Part shown: positions 7,159 to 13,853 of the stretch, one piece after another
Numbering within the stretch: position 1 is the first letter of the stretch
Layout: each line of letters starts with the position of its first letter
NCBI GenBank assembly: GCA_963765125.1
Contig: CAVXUZ010000005.1
Coordinates: 263,837 to 327,836, forward strand
Direction: 5' to 3'
Source: an uncultured candidate division WWE3 bacterium
GTDB lineage: Bacteria; Patescibacteriota; WWE3; UBA101185; UBA10185
Length of the DNA: 64,000 nucleotides
The notes under the pieces: model-generated
What the model saw: the letters and a program-made list of their open reading frames with translations, nothing else
What the model was told of the DNA's origin: nothing
The model's database searches: none
Position numbers and translations under genes: made by a program

Positions 7159-7530
7159 TTAAAATTCAGTAACGCTTTCTTGAGCAGATCTTGATTGACC
7201 GTACGCGTCAAGCTTAGTTTGAAAGGAACTCAAAGTCATAAGTGTTGCAGTAGCAATGATAAGTGAAAGAAGCCAGATATTATTTTTTTTATGAGGTGTG
7301 AATTGGGTAATGCCTACAAATACGTTTAGAACGGCTAAAAACAGTATGGGTATAATATATGTGAATAGGTCAAAAGTAAGAATGTCTTGTATTGGGTAGT
7401 TTTGAAGTGACACCGAGAGCCTAAAGATCGTGATAAGTACCCATAAAACGATTATAAAATTAAATCCACCAAACAGTTTTCTTTCATCACCATGTTTCAT
7501 ATTAATTAAGTATATATTTGCTTTTAACAA
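7159..7530 (-). CDS. hypothetical membrane protein (123 aa), co-directional with and 4 nt upstream of polX
   Basis: ORF with 3-4 predicted TM segments and no recognisable motif. Confidence 0.4.
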   Translation of the reverse strand: MLKANIYLINMKHGDERKLFGGFNFIIVLWVLITIFRLSVSLQNYPIQDILTFDLFTYIIPILFLAVLNVFVGITQFTPHKKNNIWLLSLIIATATLMTLSSFQTKLDAYGQSRSAQESVTEF

Positions 7531-7888: not shown

Positions 7889-8428
7889 ATGACAAATTTT
7901 AAAAATAATAATAAGGGTTCTACCAATGACGGTTTGGCACTTATTGTTGGTGGGCTTTTTGTACTTGCTTTAGTATTCGCTACGTATTCATATTTCAATA
8001 GAACTCCTTCACAGGATAAAAATATTAAAGAAGATGCGGTATCAAAAAACGACAGCGCTGAAAAAGAGACTCTAAGTTTAGGTGAAAGAATCAAAGAATT
8101 ATTTAATACAGATTCCAAAAAAGGTGATATTAACGGCACAGGCGGTGCTATGGACGATAAATCAGTAGATAAATCACAGGTATTAGGAACAGGCGGTCCA
8201 AAAGTACTCTACAGCGTTTGGGAAGCAACAGACTATCAAAAGGGTGATATATCTGGCGGTTCTTACGTTGTTAAATCAGGCGACACCTTGTGGGAAATTG
8301 CTGAAGCAGTCTATGGTAATGGCGCAGAATGGACAAAGATATTAGAAGCAAATAGCTCAAGCGTTGGATATCTTCCAAGTGGCGAACAAGCACTCATAAT
8401 GGTTGGTCAAACAATAGTATTACCTTAA
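7889..8428 (+). CDS. membrane-anchored LysM (peptidoglycan-binding) domain protein
   Basis: N-terminal TM anchor. The C-terminal YVVKSGDTLWEIAEAVYGNGAEWTKILEAN matches the LysM consensus. Strong SD sequence AGGAGAAAAAATG. Confidence 0.7.
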   Translation: MTNFKNNNKGSTNDGLALIVGGLFVLALVFATYSYFNRTPSQDKNIKEDAVSKNDSAEKETLSLGERIKELFNTDSKKGDINGTGGAMDDKSVDKSQVLGTGGPKVLYSVWEATDYQKGDISGGSYVVKSGDTLWEIAEAVYGNGAEWTKILEANSSSVGYLPSGEQALIMVGQTIVLP

Positions 8429-8459
8429 TATAGGCTTTATTTTTAATAGAATAACTTGA

Positions 8460-8487
8460 AAACCCTCGTTTCGGTACGGGGGTTTTT
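8460..8487 (+). terminator. rho-independent terminator after the LysM gene, followed directly by a TATAAT box (8489..8494) for tRNA-Gly
   Basis: 9-bp stem (AAACCCTCG / CGGGGGTTT), 8-nt loop, then a T-run. Confidence 0.6.
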
Positions 8488-8521
8488 GTATAATAAAGGG
8501 CGCGCAACGGTAAAAACGTAT

Positions 8522-8596
8522 GCGGGTGTGGCTTAGTGGTAAAGCGTCTCCTTCCCAAGGAGAAGACCGCGGGTTCGAGTCCCGTCACCCGCTCCA
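8522..8596 (+). tRNA. tRNA-Gly (anticodon CCC), CCA encoded
   Basis: Hand-folded: acceptor GCGGGTG/CACCCGC, anticodon stem TCTCC/GGAGA, loop TTCCCAA, T-arm GCGGG-TTCGAGT-CCCGT. Length 75 nt. Confidence 0.85.
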
Positions 8597-8745
8597 TGAA
8601 GATGCACAGTAACCCGAAGGGTTAGTGGGCATATTCATAGGGAATAAGGGACGAGAATGCCGGAAGGCGCGTAAGCGACTGAGGCGGGGTCGAATGCTTT
8701 CAAATCTTAATGAGCTTGCGAATTTAGAGTTGAAAGACATGTGAC

Positions 8746-8766
8746 CGAGTCCCGTCACCCGCTCCA
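8746..8766 (+). repeat. 21-nt exact direct repeat of the tRNA-Gly 3' end (CGAGTCCCGTCACCCGCTCCA; first copy 8576..8596), an att-site-like duplication
   Basis: Identical 21-mer 149 bp downstream of the tRNA. The upstream context does not fold as a tRNA. Confidence 0.7.
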
Positions 8767-8772
8767 GCAAAT

Positions 8773-9195
8773 ATGTGTCCATTTTGCAATATAGACAAAG
8801 AAAAAAATAGAATTATAAAATCAGGAAAATATGTATGGGTTATTATGAGCAATCCACGTCTTGTTGAAGGACACCTCTTAGTAGTTCCAAAAAGACATGT
8901 GGAGAAACTTTCTGAATTGAATAACAAAGAAAAAGATGAACTGATAAACACCACAATTGAGTTTCAAGAACTAATACTAAAGAAGTATGCATCAGGGTGT
9001 GATATAAGACAGAACTGTAGACCCTTCCAAAAAGAAAGCAAATTAAAAGTAAATCATCTTCACCTACACCTACAGCCCAGAGAGCTATTTGACGAACTTT
9101 ACAAAGTATCACAGATTTATGAAAAAGAACTATTTAAGGATTTGGATGGTGGGGAGATTAAGAAATTCACTAAGTTATTCTCGAATATTAAGTAG
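8773..9195 (+). CDS. HIT (histidine triad) family nucleotide hydrolase/transferase
   Basis: Histidine-triad motif VNHLHLHLQP. N-terminal CPFC and the VVPKRH region are typical of HIT-fold proteins. 140 aa. Confidence 0.75.
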   Translation: MCPFCNIDKEKNRIIKSGKYVWVIMSNPRLVEGHLLVVPKRHVEKLSELNNKEKDELINTTIEFQELILKKYASGCDIRQNCRPFQKESKLKVNHLHLHLQPRELFDELYKVSQIYEKELFKDLDGGEIKKFTKLFSNIK

Positions 9196-9200
9196 GATTT

Positions 9201-9221
9201 CCCGACGCGGCTAACGCTCCA
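9201..9221 (+). repeat. degenerate third copy of the tRNA-Gly 3'-end repeat (CCCGACGCGGCTAACGCTCCA) directly after the HIT gene
   Basis: It shares the TCCCG...CGCTCCA ends with the 21-mer but has an internal insertion. Weak. Confidence 0.25.
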
Positions 9222-9354
9222 AATGTAGAAAATGAACTTGACGGTCACAAATCGTAGGTGGTGGGGTTACTCAATTTTGCTCAGACTAAGCATCAGGATG
9301 GGGTGAGATTAGAAAAACAGAAACACAAATGTTTGAATTTTTAGAAGCGACTGA

Positions 9355-10983
9355 CTACTGAGTAAACTTCACACTTTCCACAATAGGTTCCAAATCAATA
9401 TTTATAATATCAGGATAGTAATCTTCGTTTAACATGGTGCCGTATTCAATAATCAAAATATATTTTCGGTTTGGATCAAGAATATAGTAGCCCTGGCTTG
9501 AAAAGCCGCCCTCACTATAGCCAAATTTACAAACATGATTTATACCAATTTTTTGGGGAGCTGATATATTTTCCTTCTCATAGTTATAACAACCATTTTT
9601 GTTGGCATCATAACCCCCACCTCCCATAACATTTACCTCTCCCACTGATCCGAATGAAATAAGCTTAAGTAGTAGCTGAGATGGTTGATAAATTTGTGAG
9701 TTGATAAAAGTTATATCTAGGAACTCAGCCACTATATCGTTTGGTTCTTTCTCTTTAGGCTGGTGCTCGATTACGTTACCAGGAACTTGCAATGTAACAA
9801 TGTTAGATAGTGAGATAGAGTTAGTTTGGGTGGTTATAGTTTCAGCGTCTTTAATAGCTGGTGTTTCAATATATTTTATTGATGCAAAAATATTATCAAT
9901 TTCTTTCAAATTATTTTCTGAGGTAAGTGGAGAGTACAATGCATAATTTCTGCCTTTATCTACGTTTATTAGTGTACTTGATGCAAAGATAGCTCCTCCA
10001 ACATTGTTTACCTCATAGGGTTCTGTCCTATAATAAAACACACCAAGCTCTTGCGAGTTAGATTCACCACCAAGCCAATATCTTGAAAGGTAAGTGCCAT
10101 CCGATAATCTTAAGAAAACCATTCTTCGTGCTAAACCAGGTAAACGGCCACCAGATGCGTTGATATGTTCACGAGCAGTCTCAATTTCAAAAAGTGTTTG
10201 ATTGTTTCTTTTAGCCGTTACGATGGTTATAAAATCGTTGTAAATTTCATAAGTCTTTTCTATAACTTGAACATCTGGAGGGTAATTAAAACTTATTCCG
10301 CCTTTTTTGCTACTGTATTCTGGCCAATTGGCGTTATTGTTAAACAAAACAACATGGGCATCAACATCCCTGTAATATCCAATACCATCTTTCTGGTAGC
10401 GGAGGGTAGTAAAATATTCTTGCTCAGAATCGGAACAATCCAAGGTAACACGTCCTATCGCCAAATCATAAAATGAGCACAATTCCACTCCATCAAGTTT
10501 TTCGATTAAGGTAAAATCGTTATAACTATCAGTATAATAATCAAACTCTGTTCCGTCGCGTAGCCAAGTACTAAAACGGTAATTTGCATCTTGATAGGGC
10601 GTAAGTTTCAAAAAGCCCAACACATCTTGATCTCCATCGCCGTCAATATCGAAAAATCGCAAGGTATTTTCAACAATCTCAGGTTTAGAAAACTCGGTTT
10701 TTCCCATTAAATCTTGAAGTTGGAGGTATGTTGCGTGATCTACTGAAGAGCCAGTGTTATTTAAGGCTACAGGGTTTTGTTCAGATTCATCATTTATCGA
10801 AACCAAAGGAGCGGTTGTACCTTCTTTATTTATATTTGAGATAATAAAATAACCAGCCATAGTCATTATAAGTACAGCTATAAAAACACTTAATGGAAAC
10901 CAGAGTATTTTTTGTTTTTCGGCTGCAGGTTCTGGTGGTATATTTTGAGCGGAATCGACCATATTCCTTATTTCTTCATCCAC
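9355..10983 (-). CDS. hypothetical membrane-anchored extracytoplasmic protein (542 aa) with a DxDxDG-like motif (FDIDGDGDQD)
   Basis: Long ORF with an N-terminal TM anchor (ILWFPLSVFIAVLIMTMAGYFII). No catalytic motif recognised. Confidence 0.5.
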   Translation of the reverse strand: MDEEIRNMVDSAQNIPPEPAAEKQKILWFPLSVFIAVLIMTMAGYFIISNINKEGTTAPLVSINDESEQNPVALNNTGSSVDHATYLQLQDLMGKTEFSKPEIVENTLRFFDIDGDGDQDVLGFLKLTPYQDANYRFSTWLRDGTEFDYYTDSYNDFTLIEKLDGVELCSFYDLAIGRVTLDCSDSEQEYFTTLRYQKDGIGYYRDVDAHVVLFNNNANWPEYSSKKGGISFNYPPDVQVIEKTYEIYNDFITIVTAKRNNQTLFEIETAREHINASGGRLPGLARRMVFLRLSDGTYLSRYWLGGESNSQELGVFYYRTEPYEVNNVGGAIFASSTLINVDKGRNYALYSPLTSENNLKEIDNIFASIKYIETPAIKDAETITTQTNSISLSNIVTLQVPGNVIEHQPKEKEPNDIVAEFLDITFINSQIYQPSQLLLKLISFGSVGEVNVMGGGGYDANKNGCYNYEKENISAPQKIGINHVCKFGYSEGGFSSQGYYILDPNRKYILIIEYGTMLNEDYYPDIINIDLEPIVESVKFTQ

Positions 10984-11131
10984 AACTCTATTCTAACAAG
11001 TTTTACTATTTGTGAATATCCAACTGCTATAAAATCTCAAGATGGCATTGGCACTAAAGCCCGCTCCAAATATTTTAAACTCCAATACACGCCATACTAA
11101 TTAAAAATCTACTATAATATTAAGTATAAAC

Positions 11132-11602
11132 ATGCACCCAAAACCAGAAGAAATAAAAAATCAACTTAGAAAATTTAACCTAATGGGTTATTCAGATGAA
11201 ACTGTAAGGTATGAGGATAACGGTAAAAATGGAAAAATTCTAACAAGAGCAGATGGCGATTGGAAATACGAAGATGAATACTACGGAGGAGAGCCTTATT
11301 CAGGCAACGAAACACTTTGGTTCAATAAAAAAGACGTTTTTAGGTGTGTTTATATGGGAAAGGTAGCGCCCGGTGTTAATTTTTCGGATATTTATTCTTT
11401 TTTAAGAAAAGCATTCAAAGAAGAGCCAAACGGAAATTGTGTTCATAGAGGTCCAGAAAAGTATACAGAAGATAACTTAACCTATACAAATGAGTGTAAG
11501 GGAACTATTGAAGAGTTTTTACAAACCGAAAGAATCTTTCTTGATGGAAAGGAAGTTTATACAGCGTATTTTATGGGCGGAAGAGTGAACGTTCAAAAAT
11601 AG
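11132..11602 (+). CDS. hypothetical protein (156 aa)
   Basis: ORF with its own TATAAT box upstream and a convergent terminator downstream. No motif recognised. Confidence 0.45.
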   Translation: MHPKPEEIKNQLRKFNLMGYSDETVRYEDNGKNGKILTRADGDWKYEDEYYGGEPYSGNETLWFNKKDVFRCVYMGKVAPGVNFSDIYSFLRKAFKEEPNGNCVHRGPEKYTEDNLTYTNECKGTIEEFLQTERIFLDGKEVYTAYFMGGRVNVQK

Positions 11603-11646
11603 GTAGATTTTTCCAAATTCAATTGACACCCCAAAACGCCAAAGAA

Positions 11647-11680
11647 AAAGCCTCATATTATTTTTATGAGGCTTTGTTTG
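11647..11680. terminator. bidirectional rho-independent terminator between convergent genes
   Basis: 10-bp stem AAAGCCTCAT / ATGAGGCTTT with T-rich tracts on both sides. Confidence 0.6.
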
Positions 11681-11695
11681 TTACAAGCAAAATCG

Positions 11696-13078
11696 TTATT
11701 TTGTACTAGACCCATTACTTTCTGTTAGCTTTGCAATGTAGGTCGTATCCTTTTCGTTAATTATCTTTTGACCGTTTGTCGGGCGACCCATGGCAAAGTA
11801 GATAAATCCAGCTTCTTGAACAGTCTTTGGATCTAACATGTTGCGACCATCAAAAATCACCGGTTTTTTAAGCAATGACTTTACTCGGGTTAAGTCCAGG
11901 TTTTTAAACTCAGGCCAGTCTGTCAAAATTACTAACGCATCCACGCCGTCAATTGCTTCGTAAGGGTCATCGCAATATGTGATAGACGTTTCACCTAGAT
12001 CTTCCTTTGCTTTCTGTGTAGCTTCTGGGTCGTACGCATTAATATATGCACCACTTCCGCGCAAACGCATGATTACCTTTTTTGCCGGCGACTCGCGGGT
12101 GTCGTCAGTTCCAGCTTTGAACGCTAGACCTAACGCAGCAAATCTTTTTCCGTCAAGGTGGCCACCATAGAACTTCGCGATTTTACTCACAAAACGTTTG
12201 TGTACACGACGATTGGTATCCAAGGTTCCTTTTAGCAGTGGCAAAGGCAAAGACCTTTTTTCTGCCTCATAAGCTAGAGCCTGCACATCTTTAGGAAAGC
12301 ACGAACCGCCCCATCCTAAGCCTGCTTTTAAGAAGTAGGGTCCAATGCGGGGGTCTTTACCAACGGCGTACATCACGTTGAGCACATCAGCGCCAATGTC
12401 TTCGCAAAAATCAGCAATGAAATCTGCAAAAGAGATCTTTGTTGCCAGTAATGCGTTTGACGCGTACTTAATCAGTTCAGCCTCTGCCAAGTTACAACGT
12501 ACAATCTCGGCGGGCAAGTGCTCAAAGATCTTCGCTACGATATTTATAGCCTCTGCTGAATCAGAACCAATCACTGTGCGAGCGGAATGCTCCATGTCGT
12601 GGACCGACGTACCTTGCGCCAAAAATTCTGGACACGAAGCTACATCAAACTGTACACCCGGTTTCACTGTATCGTGTAATATTTTCTTTACACGCAGGTT
12701 GGTTCCCACCGGTACAGTACTTTTTGTTGTCACAACTGCATAGTGCTCGAGATGTAATCCAATTTGCCTAGCAACTTCCAGAACCGATGATAGATCTGCA
12801 TCGCCTGCTGCTCCTTGAGGGGTGCCTACACAGGTAAAAATCACTTCGGCGTCTTTAATCCCGTCTGCGAGTGAGTCTGTGAACCTTAAACTGCCGTTTT
12901 TCAAGCCTTCTTCAACTAAATCTTTTAAACCCGGCTCGTAAATCGGCATTACACCCGACTGGATCATATCCAACTTTGCTCGATCAACGTCAATGCCTAC
13001 AACTTTGTTTCCCCATTTTGAGAAAACAGCTGCGCCTACTAATCCAACATACCCTGTACCTATAACAGCGATTTTCAT
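11696..13078 (-). CDS. ugd: UDP-glucose 6-dehydrogenase family (UDP-glucose/GDP-mannose dehydrogenase)
   Basis: N-terminal Rossmann motif MKIAVIGTGYVGLV, the catalytic Cys region GGSCFPKD, and a length of about 460 aa. Confidence 0.85.
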   Translation of the reverse strand: MKIAVIGTGYVGLVGAAVFSKWGNKVVGIDVDRAKLDMIQSGVMPIYEPGLKDLVEEGLKNGSLRFTDSLADGIKDAEVIFTCVGTPQGAAGDADLSSVLEVARQIGLHLEHYAVVTTKSTVPVGTNLRVKKILHDTVKPGVQFDVASCPEFLAQGTSVHDMEHSARTVIGSDSAEAINIVAKIFEHLPAEIVRCNLAEAELIKYASNALLATKISFADFIADFCEDIGADVLNVMYAVGKDPRIGPYFLKAGLGWGGSCFPKDVQALAYEAEKRSLPLPLLKGTLDTNRRVHKRFVSKIAKFYGGHLDGKRFAALGLAFKAGTDDTRESPAKKVIMRLRGSGAYINAYDPEATQKAKEDLGETSITYCDDPYEAIDGVDALVILTDWPEFKNLDLTRVKSLLKKPVIFDGRNMLDPKTVQEAGFIYFAMGRPTNGQKIINEKDTTYIAKLTESNGSSTK

Positions 13079-13264
13079 TGTCTCTCCTTTTCTTTTTGTT
13101 CTATTTTAAAAGCATTTTAAGCAGTATTAGGCTCAAAATGACATTATTTTGTCTTTCCTCTAGCGCATAACGATTTTGCGAATGTCACTATACCAATTTA
13201 AAGTTAGGTGGTCAAAATCAGAAAGCCCCACAAGCTACTACGTACAAATAAAGCCTTTAATAGG

Positions 13265-13293
13265 TTGCCTAAAATTTGTCATCCCTATATAAT
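13265..13293 (+). promoter_or_regulatory. sigma70-type promoter (TTGCCT-17-TATAAT) for the 126-aa ORF
   Basis: Hexamers with 17-nt spacing, followed by the SD sequence AAAGGAG. Confidence 0.5.
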
Positions 13294-13321
13294 CACACAA
13301 AACACCTTAAAGGAGACTGTT

Positions 13322-13699
13322 ATGGACGGTGGTGAAACCAATATTCTTGAAGATGAGCATCAAGGTGAAGAGCAAGTAAAAAAATGGCAGGATTCCGTAG
13401 AAAGAGAAATTAGGAGAGAAGCTGCGGAATACAATCAATTGATTCGTAACGGTGTTATCTTTTCTGAGTTTGTAAGTCGATCAAACGGTCGCGGACGTAA
13501 AAAAAGAAAAAGACCACGCGAAGTTAGACTAGTTACTTTTTGTAACCATACTTACGCTATAGGAACTAGACTTACACGCAAACTTGAGTGGCTAATGAAA
13601 GACGTTTTTCCTGAGGAAGCTAATCGATTTGAGGAGTTGAGTTGGCTCGAAGCATTTGTTGTTGAGCTTAGACACAGCGAAAGATTAAAGAATGAATAA
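13322..13699 (+). CDS. hypothetical acidic/basic protein (126 aa from the ATG at 13322; the ORF track extends to 13208) with an RGRKKRKRPR basic patch
   Basis: SD sequence AAAGGAGACTGTT before the ATG, a terminator right after the stop, and somewhat higher GC than neighbours. Confidence 0.4.
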   Translation: MDGGETNILEDEHQGEEQVKKWQDSVEREIRREAAEYNQLIRNGVIFSEFVSRSNGRGRKKRKRPREVRLVTFCNHTYAIGTRLTRKLEWLMKDVFPEEANRFEELSWLEAFVVELRHSERLKNE

Positions 13700-13732
13700 T
13701 ACCCAGTTACTGCAACCGCTGGGTATTTTTTT
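13700..13732 (+). terminator. rho-independent terminator (TACCCAG...CTGGGTA + T7)
   Basis: 7-bp stem followed by TTTTTTT. Confidence 0.6.
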
Positions 13733-13777
13733 ATCTTGTCTGGCTTGACTAGCAAAGAGTATACTTTCAATTACAGT

Positions 13778-13853
13778 GCCAGTGTAGCTCAGTCGGTAGA
13801 GCAAGCCCTTCGTAAGGGTTAGGTCGACGGTTCGATTCCGTCCACTGGCTCCA
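13778..13853 (+). tRNA. tRNA-Thr (anticodon CGT), CCA encoded
   Basis: Hand-folded: acceptor GCCAGTG/CACTGGC, anticodon stem AGCCC/GGGTT, loop TTCGTAA, T-arm GACGG-TTCGATT-CCGTC. Length 76 nt. Confidence 0.85.

Follow-up and report, generated by a model that had tools for sequence, protein, structure and literature searches.

Integrons carry an IntI gene beside the attI site, a cassette promoter, and folded attC sites with RYYYAAC/GTTRRRY cores. The XerC/D-dependent dif (pdif) modules of Acinetobacter plasmids are small modules that lack a recombinase of their own, are bounded by short sites, and are served by a host enzyme in trans. Among RNAs, transfer-messenger RNA (tmRNA) and the bacterial YrlA/Y RNA are tRNA-like. 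The tycheposons of Prochlorococcus insert at the 3' part of tRNA genes and leave partial-tRNA direct repeats; in tycheposon islands successive insertions push older ones in, partial-tRNA remnants are scattered, and the elements encode a recombinase of the tyrosine or large serine type, in most cases together with replication genes (bioRxiv 10.1101/2020.12.28.424599). In the Candidate Phyla Radiation (CPR), whose members have tiny genomes and few recognised mobile elements, the acquisition of accessory genes is poorly understood. Here, we analyse a stretch of 64,000 nucleotides (referred to as the window) from an uncultured candidate division WWE3 bacterium (GenBank assembly GCA_963765125.1, contig CAVXUZ010000005.1, positions 263,837 to 327,836 of the forward strand), in which a tRNA-Gly(CCC) gene is followed by an exact copy of its own 3' end, a folded non-coding element, and a series of gene cassettes. 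With a probability of roughly 0.6, we consider this locus to be an integron-like array of cassettes that arose when a putative trans-acting recombinase carried out site-specific recombination at the 3' end of the tRNA.

The tRNA-Gly(CCC) gene at 8522-8596 is called by ARAGORN and by the Rfam tRNA model (73.8 bits). Its final 21 nt (CGAGTCCCGTCACCCGCTCCA, 8576-8596), spanning T-loop C56 to the encoded CCA, recur exactly at 8746-8766, with a spacer of 149 nt between the two copies. A 20-mer of the repeat, searched with up to three mismatches, finds only two sites in the 64 kb of the window, and no match arose in 100 shuffled sequences. The repeat is exact, as had been stated in an earlier note made from the letters of the window alone, and it is non-random. 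That note also held that the second copy does not lie in a tRNA, and neither ARAGORN nor Rfam calls one at copy 2 or within 8597-8772. An intact tRNA gene thus stands beside a direct repeat of its 3' part, as is characteristic of tRNA-targeted elements. An extended -10-like sequence (TGTATAAT, 8487-8494) is located about 27 nt upstream of tRNA-Gly.

Named PolX homologs assign the window to candidate division WWE3, part of the Patescibacteria/CPR. Related genomes contain the same site unoccupied, an allele that the earlier note had proposed to look for. The nearest relatives by core genes (comparison loci L099 and L101-L104, with 68-72% amino acid identity to the window in PolX and 55-62% in LysM) show the gene order PolX, tRNA-Asp, LysM, tRNA-Gly(CCC), tRNA-Thr(CGT). 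In L099 and L101-L103, the gap from tRNA-Gly to tRNA-Thr measures 1-15 nt and contains neither a gene of the histidine triad (HIT) family, which is present in the window, nor an additional copy of the tRNA end; HIT is missing at this locus throughout L099-L104. As the two tRNAs are adjacent in these relatives and 5.2 kb apart in the window, 5.2 kb has been inserted between them. Further loci show other occupants. L100 has a single glycosyltransferase gene between tRNA-Gly and tRNA-Thr, and in L096 tRNA-Gly is followed after 6 nt by HIT, which also counts as an empty allele. In L004/L097, a 200-aa PRK-like kinase gene lies between tRNA-Gly and HIT, flanked by a 24-nt repeat (AGTCCCGTCGCCCGCTCCATGAAA) that bears the acceptor variant of that lineage. 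The repeat copy matches the resident tRNA in every lineage, across three tRNA-Gly and two tRNA-Asp variants, with the sole exception of one copy in L120/L121 that has a single mismatch.

The 5' side of tRNA-Gly shows a mirror image of this arrangement in L096 (1093-1280) and in L004 (2944-3235, the same as L097 4626-4917). There, the first 18 nt of tRNA-Gly (GCGGGCGTGGCTTAGTGG) are copied; next come two hairpin modules in tandem, an insert of 120-150 nt in which the modules show a compensatory difference (ATAGTAC/GTACTAT versus ATAGTGC/GCACTAT), and then tRNA positions 19-28 or 19-56. In L004, tRNA 5' pieces are cut in the T-loop, between ..GCGGGTTCG and GTTAATTTTGAAAATAA, and two of them stand in tandem.

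From tRNA-Gly to tRNA-Thr, the island in the window has the following features:

8522-8596, + strand: tRNA-Gly(CCC), the anchor and presumed attachment site, with repeat copy 1 at its end (ARAGORN, Rfam)
8597-8637, + strand: stable hairpin directly 3' of the tRNA CCA (minimum free energy fold, flank comparison)
8646-8745, + strand: structured "scaffold" element (composition, consensus fold, covariance model, covariation)
8746-8766, + strand: repeat copy 2, exact (repeat search, consensus fold)
8773-9195, + strand: HIT-family gene, 140 aa, read as a cargo cassette (Pfam, transfer signature)
9198-9221, + strand: cassette-end motif, or "pseudo-copy", TTTCCCGACGCGGCTAACGCTCCA (alignment with L096, L097 and L119; motif family)
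9222-9245, + strand: weak and tentative remnant of a "B" leader, AATGTAGAAAATGAACTTGACGG, to be compared with RATGTTTGAAGTTCCGA (low-scoring local alignment)
9355-10983, - strand: open reading frame (ORF) of 542 aa, no family above threshold (Pfam, PHROGs)
11059-11131, + strand: tRNA-Gly 3'-end fragment GCCCGCTCCA (11059-11068) and B-like leader, preceding DUF5680 (aligns to the tRNA-Gly end, leader and DUF5680 of L118)
11132-11602, + strand: DUF5680 gene (Pfam; 83-86% aa identity to relatives)
11696-13078, - strand: UDP-glucose dehydrogenase gene within the inserted interval (Pfam)
13778-13853, + strand: tRNA-Thr(CGT), right boundary of the inserted interval (ARAGORN; adjoins tRNA-Gly in the nearest relatives)

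The first unit lacks an ORF and is composed of the hairpin, the three-helix scaffold of about 100 nt and the displaced tRNA 3' end; after it come the HIT cassette, the 542-aa gene, the DUF5680 cassette and further genes. Upstream of the anchor lie LysM, tRNA-Asp (0.9 kb from tRNA-Gly) and PolX; past tRNA-Thr, the gene order is again that of the relatives (Glucodextran_B/Big_13, Wzy_C, Polysacc_synt, GH18). The earlier note had the HIT gene bracketed by the repeats, a placement that has to be corrected: the exact repeats bracket the 149-nt non-coding unit, and by sequence comparison HIT is a cassette between copy 2 and the cassette-end motif at 9198-9221. The degenerate third version of the tRNA end reported in the note is present, with the amendment that its TCCCG starts at 9200 rather than 9201 and that the fuller motif covers 9198-9221.

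The ORF at 8773-9195 encodes a HIT domain (Pfam PF01230, E=2.9e-10), in which the histidine triad HxHxHxx reads HLHLHLQ and residues H95, H97 and H99 are invariant in 30 homologs. It begins 6 nt past repeat copy 2, and no obvious Shine-Dalgarno sequence precedes it. Because the start codon lies exactly 6 nt past a ...CTCCA end in all lineages, expression of HIT from the tRNA promoter is suggested. Besides the window, two lineages, L004-L013/L097 and L094-L096, have HIT at the tRNA-Gly site. The window protein is 92-94% identical to those of these two lineages at the amino acid level and about 84% at the nucleotide level, while PolX is only 57% and LysM 48% identical between them and the window. 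Since HIT is this similar in lineages more distant than the relatives that lack it, it is imported cargo, in agreement with the earlier note. Nothing downstream of HIT is common to the window and these two lineages. L096 carries, at 8115-11472, HARE-HTH, a DUF2779/Cas4-like nuclease and a type I restriction-modification (R-M) system (HsdM, a Bro-N protein, HsdS); L097/L004 carry an RVT_1 reverse transcriptase (402 aa; L097 8454-9662), and L097 also HisRS and ThyX.

DUF5680 follows a comparable pattern. The window protein is 83-86% identical to the DUF5680 found directly after tRNA-Gly in L114, L115 and L118, and a DUF5680 cassette also stands inside the array of L119. The fragment GCCCGCTCCA in front of the window gene has G where the window's own tRNA-Gly has A, a donor-type acceptor variant known from other lineages, so a piece of a foreign tRNA-Gly end travelled with the cassette. 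Judged from these identities, the history of the cargo, both HIT and DUF5680, differs from that of the flanking core genes. None of 80 CPR/DPANN loci with HIT homologs shows the tRNA-Gly context or the scaffold, and the arrangement is therefore clade-specific. Exact-protein look-ups of the window HIT, LysM and P0001 returned no record. The more distant HIT homologs (L014-L093, for example L018, L020, L029, L087, L089 and L093) are 45-70% identical to that of the window and occur across many CPR bacteria and metagenome-assembled genomes labelled DPANN archaea; at several such loci, no more than about 70 nt separate HIT from a tRNA gene, whose specificity varies, which hints at a wider association of HIT with tRNA genes or at frequent transfer.

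In L114, L115, L119, L120 and L110, tRNA-Gly is followed by a string of mostly single-gene units of 0.2-1 kb. Their cargo comprises DUF5680, Tmk-ThyX, an NTP_transf_5 protein, a hydrolase, a methyltransferase, NUDIX, HIT, and unknowns. Each array ORF is followed by a conserved cassette-end motif that abuts the leader of the next unit, giving the junction consensus TTTCCAGACTCGAnnnGyGCTCCA joined to RATGTTTGAAGTTCCGA, and the leader itself resembles another degenerate tRNA 3' piece. In L119, GACTCGAnnnGyGCTCCA occurs six times, always on the + strand and behind an ORF, against 0.01 expected by chance; L114 and L115 contain the motif three times each. The combined junction, CTCCA followed directly by RATGTTTRAAGTTCCGA, has 16 copies in 8 related loci and none elsewhere among 122 loci; the junction patterns of the arrays were GACTCGANNNGYGCTCCA, CTCCARATGTTTRAAGTTCCGA and TTCTGTATTTCGTCCC. 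Between tRNA-Asp and LysM, the cargo ORFs are closed by an Asp-type motif, TTCTGTATTTCGTCCC...CCCCGCCA. At some junctions, and directly after the tRNA in L110, L119 and L120, the hairpin, the scaffold and an exact tRNA copy are inserted immediately behind GCTCCA. The sequence at 9198-9221 of the window is a diverged homolog of the cassette-end motif, with which it aligns, as it does with the sequence after HIT in L096 and L097; taken alone it is weak, as a 5-nt indel is needed against the tRNA end. Serial insertion at the tRNA end, as the earlier note had it, is borne out by these arrays of junctions derived from tRNA 3' ends.

The spacer between the two repeat copies has a GC content of 50-57%, compared to about 35% for the genome, and a fold z-score of -3.7. 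It consists of the hairpin at 8597-8637, which is positioned like hairpin A of the Gly-type units or the terminator hairpin of the Asp-type units of relatives, and of the three-helix scaffold. In the window, the predicted helices are P1, with its 5' strand at 8646-8652, a P2 hairpin at about 8659-8685, and a long P3 hairpin at 8688-8746. The fold extends into copy 2, where C8746 closes P3, positions 8749-8756 (GTCCCGTC) form the 3' strand of P1, and positions 8757-8766 (ACCCGCTCCA) form an unpaired tail. In the consensus, P1 pairs GACGGGAY with RTCCCGTC at the scaffold ends, P2 is a short hairpin, and P3 is closed by GGTYG.../...TGACC. Through P1, the start of the element is thus base-paired to the T-stem strand within the tRNA copy, and the 10-nt acceptor strand plus NCCA stays unpaired.

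A covariance model (R1) built from four copies matches the window with 113 bits (E about 1e-26). Full-length matches of 108-133 bits are found in L096 (two), L097, L110, L111, L114, L115 (two), L116, L119 (two), L120, L121 and the window; counts from this collection-wide scan are lower bounds. They amount to at least 9 distinct full-length scaffolds, each directly 5' of a copy of the resident tRNA 3' end (Gly or Asp) and always oriented like the tRNA. In L096, one homolog follows tRNA-Asp and ends in the tRNA-Asp 3' end, and one follows HIT and ends in the tRNA-Gly 3' end. In a set of 10 distinct sequences, pairing is kept in 93.5% of cells, compared to 84% in shuffles, and 12 pairs carry double changes, compared to 5.1±1.5 in shuffles (0/500 reach 12) and at most 2 in slid controls, in an alignment that is derived from the covariance model and leans towards its structure. 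P1 changes together with the tRNA, with GGGAC/GTCCC accompanying the T-loop GAGTCCC and GGGAT/ATCCC accompanying GAATCCC. Genuine T-arms are aligned by the model only as P1 plus a 7-nt loop (about 7 bits); formally, therefore, the element is a T-arm whose loop is replaced by about 100 structured nucleotides.

By these comparisons, the spacer is a conserved, folded and previously undescribed element rather than junk. The earlier note had taken the sites for decayed scars, a view that is not supported for either part: the spacer holds a structured element with covariation, and the degenerate motif is a conserved cassette-end motif. The same note had considered that a conserved structured RNA would speak against insertion. 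A structure is indeed present, yet insertion is supported as well, and both hold at once. At the gathering threshold, Rfam 15 finds only four tRNAs and nothing for the spacer and copy; at E≤10, matches for the window, 8400-9400 and 8597-8775 are at chance level, the best being Clostridiales-1 with 11.5-18.5 bits against a gathering threshold of 48. Behind the window's HIT gene, the covariance model, run with filters off, detects no remnant of a decayed scaffold, and scans for promoters and terminators around the element did not rise above shuffles. Gly tails and Asp tails are each found on both scaffold subtypes, which means that the resident tRNA determines the tail; the pattern could have arisen by movement between tRNA-Gly and tRNA-Asp, which have an identical T-arm, or by gene conversion. 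The element may act as RNA or as folded DNA, and both readings are live.

Truncated or variant scaffolds were observed at L095 6127-6218 (equivalent to L096 about 7356-7447), L096 308-377 and L097 983-1180, one of which has no tRNA copy (32 bits). In the L097 variant, GTGACCGA is separated from a decayed tRNA-Asp end by a mini-hairpin insert of 32 nt, and a mini-insert of the same type (GCGGG..tttcgcagagcaaaa..GTCCCGTC) forms the right junction of the L004 kinase cassette.

With the repeat, the empty sites, the foreign origin of HIT and DUF5680, the layout of the arrays and the conservation of the scaffold fold established, we postulate that the 21-nt repeat would be the duplication left by insertion of DNA into the 3' end of tRNA-Gly(CCC), and that tRNA-Gly and tRNA-Asp would serve as recombination hotspots in one WWE3 clade. 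Cassettes would be exchanged between lineages and inserted at the ...GCTCCA ends of the tRNA or its copies, newer units pushing older ones downstream, with a recombinase that acts in trans. The closing helix of the scaffold stands in for the 5' strand of the T-stem, so that the scaffold mimics a T-arm plus acceptor 3' strand. The scaffold may be part of a recombination site, in which a folded-DNA or arm module would restore the tRNA target so that further units can insert, and it is possibly also transcribed from the tRNA promoter. We infer recombination-mediated insertion from the repeat, whose geometry runs from T-loop to CCA, from the existence of empty sites and of alternative occupants, from the strict orientation of the motifs, and from the imported tRNA fragment. 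A more specific proposal, which we advance tentatively as possible rather than probable, is an undescribed integron-like gene-capture platform in WWE3, anchored at tRNA-Gly(CCC) and tRNA-Asp(GTC), with tRNA-end-derived sites of about 60 nt on single-gene cassettes, a T-arm-mimicking module of about 100 nt acting as a folded single-stranded site or RNA cofactor, and a recombinase encoded elsewhere in the genome.

In the window island (8597-13777) and in the related arrays, none of the ORFs tested against Pfam and PHROGs resembled an integrase or a transposase, and comparison of the cargo ORFs without assigned function with PHROGs revealed no hidden integrase. The earlier note's statement that no integrase remains holds for these ORFs; its term "integrase-mediated" is an inference, as the system could be linked to none. 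A recombinase has left a trace only in L108 (1-4590), where an element of at least 4.5 kb at the tRNA-Asp site contains a 63-aa fragment matching large serine integrases and also encodes a replication-initiator homolog, DNA-binding proteins and a 521-aa protein of no assigned function. At its right junction, the Asp-type cassette-end motif is joined to native flank, and the element is a candidate autonomous relative of the cassettes.

Several observations weigh against the cassette-array explanation. None of the arrays is linked to a recombinase, and neither circular nor excised forms were observed. A distal attR was sought, and no copy of the tRNA-Gly end is present at the right end of the island beside tRNA-Thr. 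The scaffold is missing from most cassette junctions and is consequently not required for each insertion. With 9 distinct full-length scaffolds in one clade, several of the compensatory changes may trace to few events. G·U versus A·C cells stand at 15:5 overall and at 6:5 without one invariant pair, so that the evidence on the folding strand is weak. In IMG/VR, the 21-mer matches only phage tRNA-Gly(TCC) genes in tRNA arrays, and two scaffold and two junction patterns give one chance-looking match (L098) or none in viral contigs. The phage search of the spacer that the earlier note had recommended, a blastn comparison with phage records, returned no match, and neither did blastn of the tRNA-Asp-linked scaffold of L096 against plasmid records. 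All comparison sequences are metagenome assemblies. In principle, the arrays could also be shuffled by homologous recombination between junction modules of about 60-250 nt, with no dedicated enzyme.

Of the rival explanations, the least unlikely reads the scaffold and tRNA-end copy as a non-coding RNA gene that mimics a T-arm and acceptor 3' strand, shares a transcript with the tRNA and is cut at the CCA. Selection would then preserve the identity of the tail, for example for recognition by tRNA 3'-end enzymes or as a processing or stability signal for cassette mRNAs, and the arrays would be a separate matter. The three-helix structure conserved with covariation, the elevated GC content (as for structural RNAs in AT-rich genomes), the invariant G·U pair on the + strand, the retained complementarity of P1 to the tRNA-derived strand across the T-loop variant, and the constant orientation with the tRNA all fit such a gene. 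As no terminator is predicted from the tRNA-Gly promoter to HIT in the window, the element would also be transcribed. Asp-type units, however, have a terminator-like hairpin with a U-run between tRNA and scaffold, leaving only 5-7 nt for a promoter. Rfam has no match, the 5' acceptor strand that would complete a tRNA-like fold is missing, and without the invariant pair little speaks for one strand over the other. We regard this reading as somewhat doubtful, and it is compatible with the cassette-array explanation. Guide RNAs of the TnpB omega-RNA or Cas12k homing-crRNA type resemble the element in outline, with a scaffold of about 100 nt and, behind it, about 20 nt that are also found in a tRNA gene directly after GGTT; the 21-nt tRNA end would be the 3' guide that leads a nuclease or transposase to the tRNA gene, with the T-loop GGTT as a PAM/TAM-like (protospacer- or target-adjacent) motif. 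As 9 of the 21 "guide" bases are paired (C8746 in P3; 8749-8756 in P1, which shows covariation), and as the tested ORFs, in the window and in those related loci that were examined in detail, include no gene for RuvC, TnpB, Cas or a transposase, this idea has hardly any credibility.

A plain decayed integrative element, with attL/attR scars, a leftover spacer and a third motif that decayed at random, would account for the classic geometry of a T-loop-to-CCA direct repeat, the empty sites, and the lack of an integrase among the tested ORFs. It is improbable, given that the spacer family is conserved across lineages and two tRNAs with compensatory changes, and that the motif has a consensus of its own, distinct from the tRNA and common to many cassettes, which independent decay would not yield. 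Local duplication, in which the T-arm hairpin causes slippage during replication or unequal crossing-over, would involve no mobile DNA at all. Tandem units with identical tRNA end and hairpin after tRNA-Asp in L097 are in line with it, and gene conversion within a genome could explain the occurrence of both tails on both subtypes. It leaves unexplained, however, the foreign genes between the tRNAs, the discordance of HIT and DUF5680, and the donor-type fragment at 11059-11068, and different lineages have different inserts at the same site. Very unlikely in general, it is contradicted for the whole array and possible for the multiplication of scaffolds within one genome. Readings as tmRNA, split tRNA, intron, ribozyme or guide RNA were set aside, as their defining features are missing; for tRNA and tmRNA, there is no cloverleaf with both acceptor strands, and ARAGORN finds no tmRNA. 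A minus-strand reading resembling a retroviral primer-binding site was likewise rejected, with no reverse transcriptase in the window island and the invariant G·U pair weakly favouring the + strand.

As a whole, the earlier view of the locus as an insertion at a tRNA attB site, with HIT as cargo and no integrase left, was largely right. The site now appears as two adjacent tRNA genes acting as docking points, with cassettes common to lineages that are only about 50-60% identical in their core genes. Should the element and the junction motifs be true recombination sites, they would form a compact capture system, analogous to integrons and built on tRNA ends, and the element would also be a new structured nucleic-acid motif that is directly searchable. 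There is a substantial chance that this is a distinct integron-like gene-capture platform in CPR. On a conservative reading, the locus is a clear example of tRNA-anchored island assembly in CPR, together with a conserved non-coding element absent from Rfam.

Compared with the described systems, the arrays share with tycheposons the use of the 3' part of a tRNA gene with partial-tRNA direct repeats, the displacement of older units by newer ones, and the scattered partial-tRNA remnants, as well as that the tRNA stays intact and that niche or defence cargo is carried (type I R-M in L096, reverse transcriptase in L097). In contrast to tycheposons, no recombinase was found in or beside the arrays, and the units are small, with their own junction consensus of about 60 nt and a structured element of about 100 nt at those copies that are most tRNA-like. 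The tRNA-like RNAs tmRNA and YrlA/Y RNA share with the scaffold a T-stem-equivalent helix followed by an acceptor 3' strand and NCCA; unlike them, the element has no 5' acceptor strand, no T-loop and no Rfam match. Like pdif modules, the cassettes do not carry their own recombinase, have short conserved bounding sites, and apparently depend on a trans-acting host enzyme; their sites, however, derive from tRNA 3' ends rather than from dif-like XerC/XerD pairs, and they are chromosomal and tRNA-anchored. Integrons differ in having an IntI gene by the attachment site, which here is a tRNA 3' end, and the structured element stands at some junctions only; attC cores (RYYYAAC/GTTRRRY) were not seen by eye, and no attC model was run. 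With integrons, the arrays share small, mostly single-ORF and mostly co-oriented cassettes (in one orientation in L119, L114 and L115), each with a conserved end motif, the occurrence of ORF-less cassettes, entry at a fixed site downstream of a promoter, here that of a tRNA gene, and a site conserved in structure more than in sequence.

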